A stretch of 11,447 nt of DNA from a virus: UHGV virus genome UHGV-1613795; one strand, written 5' to 3'. Position numbers and translations under genes: made by a program. The notes beneath the pieces are model-generated. The model saw only the letters and a list, made by a program, of their open reading frames with translations. It was not told the origin of the DNA and did not search any database. The stretch's first letter is position 1. Each line of letters begins with the position of its first letter. Positions 6,554 to 6,654 of the stretch are shown here, piece by piece.

Positions 6554-6654
6554 TGATCACTCCTTTTACGTAATGGCATTATGCCTTGAAAGCAATATGC
6601 CATCATTGAATATAAATAGCAATATGCCATCATTGTTTTTTTTGAGGTGATGTT
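6554..6654. promoter_or_regulatory. Divergent promoter/operator region between the Arc-like and Mnt-like genes
   Basis: 101-bp AT-rich intergenic region between divergent starts. Contains palindrome GGCAT-T-ATGCC (6575-6585), a perfect 18-bp direct repeat AGCAATATGCCATCATTG (6591-6608 and 6618-6635), candidate plus-strand -35 TTGAAA (6586-6591) and -10 TATAAA (6611-6616), and candidate minus-strand -10 CATAAT (complement of 6578-6583) overlapping the palindrome. Promoter assignments are by eye. Confidence 0.55.

Follow-up and report, generated by a model that had tools for sequence, protein, structure and literature searches.

In phage P22 the antirepressor gene ant is governed from the immI region by two repressors, Mnt, which represses ant in the lysogen, and Arc, which limits the expression of ant and mnt during infection (PMC11016777). 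The same layout, that of the "ant moron" of PMC2629481, is found in an 11,447-nt stretch of viral DNA, UHGV virus genome UHGV-1613795 (hereafter the window, meaning the whole stretch that was analysed), where positions 6554-6654 are the 101-bp control region of a P22-immI-like prophage antirepressor cassette. A sequence-only reading of this region had drawn attention to operator-like repeats and assigned them to repressors of the ribbon-helix-helix (RHH) family. The comparisons described below make it likely that the repeats are three operators, O1, O2 and O3, for the adjacent Mnt-like RHH repressor, lying over the overlapping, divergent promoters predicted for arc-ant and for the mnt-like gene. 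Judged by its sequence, the control region is most likely a relative of the P22 immI region, a three-site variant with RHH operators of the Mnt/AmrZ type.

The arrangement in the window, with arc-like and ant read leftward, mnt-like read rightward and a putative sar-like antisense RNA between arc-like and ant, matches that of P22, where mnt is likewise divergent from arc-ant. In both, the two promoters overlap and diverge (those of the window being predicted) and a palindromic operator of Mnt type lies at the start of the leftward promoter, its centre 25 bp from the start of arc in P22 and 27 bp from it in the window. The leftward -10 and -35 elements are 40-45 and 63-68 bp from the arc start in P22, and 41-46 and 64-69 bp from it, by prediction, in the window. 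In contrast, P22 has a single 17-bp Omnt (AGGTCCACCGTGGACCT) and an unrelated 21-bp Oarc, whereas the window has three related sites, the O1-like O2 and O3 occupying the space of P22 Oarc. The half-site is GGC in the window and TCC in P22, and the transcription starts, ~38 bp apart in P22, are predicted to lie ~53 bp apart in the window. The Mnt-like protein of the window also has a different C-terminal domain, and the prophage itself is not P22-like.

A second point of reference is the complex of AmrZ with its amrZ1 site from Pseudomonas aeruginosa (PDB 3QOQ; PMC3325190), the best match to the Mnt-like protein among solved structures. Both proteins carry the strand KFVVR(L/F)P, of which K, V and R contact bases in AmrZ. 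In the crystal structure two inverted 5'-GGC half-sites, with an A/T-rich linker of 5 bp between them, are contacted by K18, V20 and R22 of a protein bound as a dimer of dimers, and affinity falls when the half-sites are mutated or the linker is made G/C-rich (PMC3325190). The window has the same two inverted GGC half-sites and A/T-rich linker of 5 bp; O1, GGC-ATTAT-GCC, shares the format of amrZ1, GGC-AAAAC-GCC. The two systems differ in that the linker is AAAAC in amrZ1 and ATTAT or AATAT in the window, and in that O2 and O3 have AGC in one half. Furthermore, AmrZ is a chromosomal global regulator and not a phage immunity protein, and amrZ1 is a single crystallised site.

The OR1-OR2-OR3 region of phage lambda is alike in function only. 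There, too, three related, graded sites lie over two divergent promoters, one of which is repressed while the other is autoregulated according to concentration, and specificity modules are swapped among heteroimmune phages. However, the lambda repressors are helix-turn-helix and not RHH proteins, without homology to those considered here, and the sharing of sites by CI and Cro, which is established for lambda, is a hypothesis for the cassette in the window.

Three related sites over two predicted promoters

The repeats were found just as the sequence-only reading had given them. An 18-bp direct repeat, AGCAATATGCCATCATTG, occurs in two perfect copies whose starts are 27 bp apart, and a search of the 11.4-kb window allowing up to three mismatches returned these 2 matches, against 0.01 expected from 200 shuffles. 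The sequence at 6575-6585, GGCATTATGCC (GGCAT-T-ATGCC), forms a perfect palindrome of odd length, and the ATGCCAT core of the direct repeats recurs as its reverse complement, ATGGCAT, at 6573-6579. In the window the 7-mer ATGCCAT alone is not significant (5 matches against 2.7 expected). For the longer, degenerate core RGCAWTATGCC, with up to one mismatch, there were 6 hits where 0.9 would be expected; they fall at four distinct places, of which three are within a single 60-bp stretch of the control region. The P22 Mnt operator GGTCCACCGTGGACC had no match in the window even with 3 mismatches, in agreement with the earlier suggestion that its core is absent and the specificity changed.

A better description of the repeats is as a set of three 15-bp sites, related to one another and sharing the frame xx-NNC-N5-GNN-xx:

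6573-6587, no strand: O1, near-perfect 15-bp palindrome ATGGCATTATGCCTT; half-sites GGC (6575-6577) and GCC (6583-6585), linker ATTAT
6589-6603, no strand: O2, AAAGCAATATGCCAT (AGC-AATAT-GCC), within copy 1 of the direct repeat
6616-6630, no strand: O3, ATAGCAATATGCCAT (AGC-AATAT-GCC), within copy 2 of the direct repeat
6591-6608, plus strand: direct repeat copy 1, AGCAATATGCCATCATTG
6618-6635, plus strand: direct repeat copy 2, AGCAATATGCCATCATTG

Each site consists of two 3-bp half-sites (GGC or AGC, then GCC) with five A/T-rich base pairs between them, 8 bp centre to centre, and O2 and O3 have the common form A[A/T]AGCAATATGCCAT. An exact GGC-W5-GCC occurs only twice in the window, once as O1, and the four half-sites of O1 and O2 follow one another at a regular spacing of 8 bp (6575, 6583, 6591 and 6599). 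The perfect 18-bp identity of the repeats around O2 and O3 is confined to the E. coli lineage; the other loci with sites of the same sequence class (class A, below) show 2-3 differences in linkers and flanks with the AGC, GGC and GCC half-sites fixed. Half-sites that stay fixed while linkers and flanks drift are what an operator reading predicts.

The promoters were placed with a scan of simple weighted hexamers, in which the annotated P_ant and P_mnt of P22 (X01916) came out with the best score on their respective strands. The scan was run on the window and on 14 relatives from nine or more operator classes, and its predictions for the window are:

6594-6622, minus strand: predicted leftward promoter (arc-ant, P_ant-like); -35 TTGCTA (6622-6617), 17-bp spacer, TGG and -10 CATATT (6602-6594)
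6606-6633, plus strand: predicted rightward promoter (mnt-like); -35 TTGAAT (6606-6611), 16-bp spacer, TGC and -10 CATCAT (6625-6633)

The leftward promoter has the top minus-strand score and a predicted start at ~6587, which places O1 at about +1 to +15. The left half of O3 always contains its -35, and that of O2 its TGn-extended -10 (14 of 14 relatives with O2 and O3); the two left halves depart from the palindrome because they also serve as promoter hexamers. The rightward promoter, which ties for the top plus-strand score, is weak; its predicted start, at ~6640, is inside a T-run. A TTGnnn follows O2 directly on its 3' side in nearly all classes, and the TGn and -10 of this predicted promoter share bases with the right edge of O3.

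The promoter assignments of the sequence-only reading fared less well than its repeats. It had placed a minus-strand -10, CATAAT (6583-6578), within the palindrome; this hexamer ranks second (14.0 against 16.5), finds only a poor -35, ATGATG, to pair with, and does not keep its position in other classes. It is not favoured, as the best and position-conserved leftward promoter puts the palindrome at ~+1 to +15, as for P22 Omnt. The second repeat, which had been set at the likely transcription start region of the mnt-like gene, instead overlaps the predicted rightward -10 and leftward -35. Two other rightward pairs were passed over: TTGAAA (6586-6591)-19 bp-TATAAA (6611-6616), the positional analogue of P22 P_mnt, has too long a spacer and is not conserved beyond class A, and ATGCCA (6597-6602)-17 bp-CAATAT (6620-6625) is second-best in some class B loci. 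A reading of the O1/O2 inverted repeat as a hairpin was set aside because the predicted start of the leftward transcript falls inside the repeat.

Further matches to the operator core were noted elsewhere in the window. Near-sites on the minus strand within ant (5660-5670 and 5682-5692; one mismatch each, 22 bp apart) are not class-specific operators, being identical in cassettes of classes A, B and C, and thus are conserved coding sequence that most likely matches by chance. Apart from O1, the window has a single exact GGC-W5-GCC (0.1 expected), GGCTAATTGCC at 1035-1045, inside a 212-aa open reading frame for a DUF2612 baseplate protein; it could be chance or a stray site.

Co-variation of the sites with the Mnt-like protein

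The genes that flank the control region, and the segment that proved to differ between otherwise similar cassettes, are as follows:

6655-6975, plus strand: mnt-like gene, 106 aa; Pfam Arc 69.9 bits; ribosome-binding site (RBS) GAGGTG (6644-6649); terminator 6963-6986
6392-6553, minus strand: arc-like gene, 53 aa; RHH protein with beta-strand K7-T-T9-L-R11; RBS AAGGAG (6565-6560)
6561-6750, no strand: specificity patch; operators and the first ~32 mnt-like codons (arm, beta-strand and helix A)

We compared the control region with 152 related loci that were fetched for this purpose (L001-L152). Nearly all have the same layout, with a near-perfect palindrome beside the arc-like RBS, a second copy 15-24 bp further on, and a third copy 26-27 bp past the second (34-37 bp in alphaproteobacteria), just ahead of the mnt-like RBS. 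This three-site layout is shared by more than ten sequence classes, which range from E. coli prophages to Xenorhabdus and Rhizobium. Only one such site is present in P22 and in a Pluralibacter prophage, and on these sequences P22 appears to be an unusual member of a family in which the three-site layout is widespread. In complete E. coli genomes, the control region has full-length matches at 97-99% identity in 7 of 5,426, and the mnt-like gene matches in 295 of 5,426, largely in cassettes of the type found in Shiga toxin (Stx) phages; relatives occur in many Stx-converting phages.

The site sequences fall into discrete classes, and the three sites of a locus switch class together. The class of O1-O3 co-varies with the beta-strand of the Mnt-like protein in the five classes listed here and in further ones:

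Class A (window): Mnt-like strand KFVVRF; O1 ATGGCATTATGCC, O2 AGCAATATGCC, O3 AGCAATATGCC
Class B (sites of GF-2, L074): strand KFN[LV]RF; O1 GGCCATAATGCCAC, O2 GGCCATAATGCCAC, O3 GGCAATATGGCAC
Class C: strand KFTVRF; O1 AAGGCAAATTGCCTT, O2 GTCAATTTACC, O3 GTCAAGTTGCC
Class D: strand RFNIRL; O1 ACCAACTTGGT, O2 ACCAATTTAAC, O3 GTCAAGTTGGT
Class E: strand KFM[VL]RF; O1 ATGTCACGGTGACAT, O2 ATGTCACTGTGACTC, O3 ATGTCAATGTGATAG

Additional classes were seen in Yersinia/Hafnia (RFTVRM; GCATCATTTTGATGC), Photorhabdus/Xenorhabdus and Rhizobium/Rhodobacter. Written as half-sites, KFVVRF accompanies GGC-N5-GCC, KFTVRF the same GGC-N5-GCC with another linker and other flanks, RFNIRL ACC-N5-GGT, KFM[VL]RF GTC-N5-GAC and RFTVRM ATC-N5-GAT. 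The half-site trinucleotide tracks the three alternate residues of the strand across unrelated lineages, GGC being paired with K-V-R or K-T-R, GTC with K-M-R, ATC with R-T-R and ACC with R-N-R; 10 distinct control regions, ranging from Pectobacterium to Rhizobium, have the pairing of K-M-R with GTC. The third base of the half-site is nearly always C, opposite the invariant Arg. These pairs were taken from a table curated by hand, of 37 loci together with AmrZ from the literature, and the statistic computed on them ignores phylogeny. The frame of paired, inverted half-sites, 8 bp centre to centre, holds in all 37 tabulated loci.

Some loci depart from the common form in their own ways. In class B (L001, L002, L003 and L074) the sites are not symmetric, and the third, GGCAATATGGCAC, is the inverse of the first and second, GCCATAATGCCA. 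The first site of the class B Stx phage 2851 has a longer, degenerate linker, GTGCCAAAGTGACGCCA. In one class E locus, L072, an 8-bp unit (TTTATAGC and variants) is repeated five times in tandem in the space from the third operator to the mnt-like RBS. Divergent RHH gene pairs from Rhizobiales, Rhodobacter, Pantoea and others (L109, L118, L122, L124, L125, L129 and L143) have three sites at spacings of ~15-24 and 34-37 bp, with back-to-back TTGAC -35 hexamers between sites two and three. The design is thus not limited to enterobacterial phages.

A second line of evidence is the exchange of the patch. From about residue 21 onward the Mnt-like proteins of classes A, C and D have the same sequence; only the N-terminal arm and strand set them apart. 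In an identity profile of the window against a class C locus (L004), identity drops to 54-70% over 6561-6740 only, the flanking bins, in arc-like/ant and the 3' part of mnt-like, being mostly at 86-100% with a lowest value of 76%; against a class D locus (L044), near-identity is limited to the 3' part of the mnt-like gene, from ~6741. Divergence so confined, next to identical C-terminal parts, indicates that the operators and the DNA-reading N-terminus are exchanged as one patch. The searchable literature, in which older P22 work is poorly covered, gave no description of a three-site Mnt-type operator or of a swapped specificity patch, which is weak evidence for novelty.

The Arc-like protein does not track the sites. 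Relative to the window it is identical at 52 of 53 residues in class C and at 51 of 53 in class B (GF-2), and its strand VKTTLRYP is unchanged in class B and C cassettes. An Arc-like type with the triplet S-Q-R occurs with classes D, E and F, and the MQLRTT type of Xenorhabdus with three classes.

The Mnt-like protein, finally, fits the AmrZ precedent. It has an N-terminal RHH domain with beta-strand K11-F-V13-V-R15 and matches AmrZ (E 6e-9), Mnt (3e-6) and Arc (1e-3) in the PDB; in an alignment to these three that spans the strand and helices, K11, V13 and R15 fall on AmrZ K18, V20 and R22. The assignment of the sites to the Mnt-like protein is thus supported by comparative data, namely co-variation, patch swap, an Arc-like protein that does not follow the sites, and AmrZ. 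Of the original proposal that the repeats are sites of an RHH repressor, the part that concerns the Mnt-like protein is upheld on these grounds; nothing in the comparisons links the Arc-like protein to the repeats, 51-52 of its 53 residues being the same across three classes of repeats.

Proposed regulation and competing explanations

From these comparisons we infer binding, occupancy order, start sites and tetramer stoichiometry as follows. One RHH dimer would read one half-site through its beta-sheet (K11, V13 and R15), so that each operator would hold one tetramer. Mnt-like tetramers would fill the best site, O1, which is the only fully symmetric one, and then O2 and O3. Once bound, O1-O3 would block the arc-ant promoter at its start, -10 and -35, and no antirepressor would be made in the lysogen. 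In P22, silencing of the strong leftward promoter favours the weak rightward one, and in the window the shutting off of the leftward promoter may likewise favour mnt-like transcription at first. As O3 overlaps the -10 of the predicted mnt-like promoter, high levels of repressor should curb its own synthesis, so that occupancy of O3 would set a limit to the Mnt-like protein.

Several points weigh against assigning the three sites to the Mnt-like repressor in this way. The support for operator binding is wholly comparative, and, as the Mnt-like N-terminus is encoded right beside the operators, linkage could account in part for their co-inheritance. Classes A and C share GGC half-sites and may not be truly different specificities. 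The sites of class B, where the triplet is K-N-R, are asymmetric, and other K-N-R proteins have different sites; thus specificity is not set by the three strand residues alone. The rightward promoter, with CATCAT as its -10, is weak, and alternative hexamer pairs are present. The statistic for triplet and half-site pairs is blind to phylogeny and was run on a hand-curated table.

The explanation that competes most seriously with sole control by the Mnt-like protein is that both RHH proteins bind O1-O3 with differing preferences, in the manner of CI and Cro, to form a two-repressor switch. A distinct and symmetric operator of Arc type was looked for in the 101-bp region and none was found, as sharing would lead one to expect. 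In type I, II and III cassettes the leader and the -35/-10 spacer were inspected by eye for a symmetric element, independent of class, on which the Arc-like protein might act, and only promoter hexamers and CAAT...ATTG flanks were seen. The Arc-like triplet in the window, K-T-R, is near the K-V-R of its Mnt-like partner and the same as that of the class C Mnt-like proteins, which have GGC-N5-GCC sites, and both partners carry the same triplet in phage 2851 (K-N-R), in class C (K-T-R) and in L105, L091 and L109. In addition, the Arc-like proteins of three class E loci (L079, L086 and L089) differ from their S-Q-R relatives (L065 and L087) in essentially nothing but the strand, EKFMLRLP, which is that of the Mnt-like partner. 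However, the same Arc-like protein also accompanies class B sites, which lack the GGC-N5-GCC frame; the S-Q-R type, as mentioned above, goes with three operator classes (D, E and F) that are unrelated; and Mnt and Arc of P22 have distinct operators. We therefore consider shared binding possible but rather improbable. The same doubt attaches to its fuller form, a two-repressor, three-operator RHH switch retargeted by exchange of a ~190-bp patch and, in some lineages, by rewriting of the Arc-like strand to match its partner; were it true, P22, the textbook case with separate Omnt and Oarc, would be an atypical member of a widespread family.

A division of labour as in P22 would make O1 alone the operator of the Mnt-like protein and the 18-bp direct repeats that of the Arc-like protein, over the leftward -35 and -10. 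O2 and O3 do lie where Oarc lies in P22, over the -10 and -35 of P_ant and between them, and two features missing from O1, an AGC left half and a CATCATTG extension, are common to the direct repeats. Yet O2 and O3 switch class along with O1 and the Mnt-like strand, whereas 51-52 of the 53 Arc-like residues are the same in classes A, B and C, and the deviation of the two sites from the palindrome is accounted for by the promoter hexamers in their left halves. This division is accordingly very unlikely. Least probable of all, to the point that we give it hardly any weight, is that no dedicated protein binds and the repeats are duplicated promoter elements or a recent local duplication. Each repeat does hold a -10-like and a -35-like hexamer, and the perfect 18-bp identity is restricted to one lineage, but three sites in the same layout, with class-specific palindromic cores, are found in many lineages whose intergenic sequence is otherwise unrelated, linkers drift while half-sites are kept, and the site fits the experimentally defined format of AmrZ.

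The repeats themselves are probably ordinary operators. Antirepressors, however, decide whether resident prophages, Shiga-toxin phages among them, remain silent. If the model of three Mnt-like operators is true, secondary immunity would have diversified by the swapping of a small patch, operators and DNA-reading N-terminus together, with the rest of the cassette identical, and such exchange would yield heteroimmune classes that escape the Mnt of a resident phage. The natural variants also offer a directly testable table of RHH residues and half-sites, which could be used in the design of orthogonal repressors.

Cassette genes and the sar-like RNA

The remaining features of the cassette are the regulated gene, a putative antisense RNA and a tract within the control region:

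5442-6320, minus strand: ant (antirepressor); Bro-N and P22_AR_C domains; also supported by annotations of relatives; the regulated cargo
6322-6388, plus strand: sar-like antisense RNA, opposite the RBS and start of ant; terminator hairpin followed by a T-run
6636-6643, no strand: T8/A8 tract between O3 and the mnt-like RBS, conserved in classes A and B

A sar antisense RNA is probably present in the cassette, though its score is under the curated threshold: the full Rfam sar model (1-68) matches with E 0.0025 at 28.5 bits, against a gathering score of 43. The segment is preceded by a promoter-like site, GTGAAA-17-TATACT, at 6286-6314, and folds into two hairpins (-26.4 kcal/mol, z = -4.9), the terminator hairpin being clearly related to that of P22. 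The T8/A8 tract lies at about -49 to -56 of the predicted leftward promoter and may be an UP element.

The Arc-like protein scores 17.5 bits against Pfam Arc, under the cutoff of 20.4, and has weak matches to Arc in the PDB. The C-terminal part of the Mnt-like protein is predicted as a long helix, residues 69-102, with a predicted local distance difference test score (pLDDT) of ~80 in a single-sequence AlphaFold model that is of low confidence as a whole (mean pLDDT 63.8; predicted template modelling score 0.37).

The cassette in the window belongs to an E. coli prophage unlike P22, where it is inserted among baseplate or tail genes that form a cluster. Tail and baseplate clusters also host it in phage 2851 (L001), GF-2 (L002) and E. 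coli KCJ3K291 (L153), and the phage types concerned are unrelated, including one with lambda-like tail genes L, M and H, a myovirus, and a prophage with a baseplate J/DUF2612/DUF3383 cluster. The presence of the cassette in such clusters of unrelated phages is consistent with a mobile moron.

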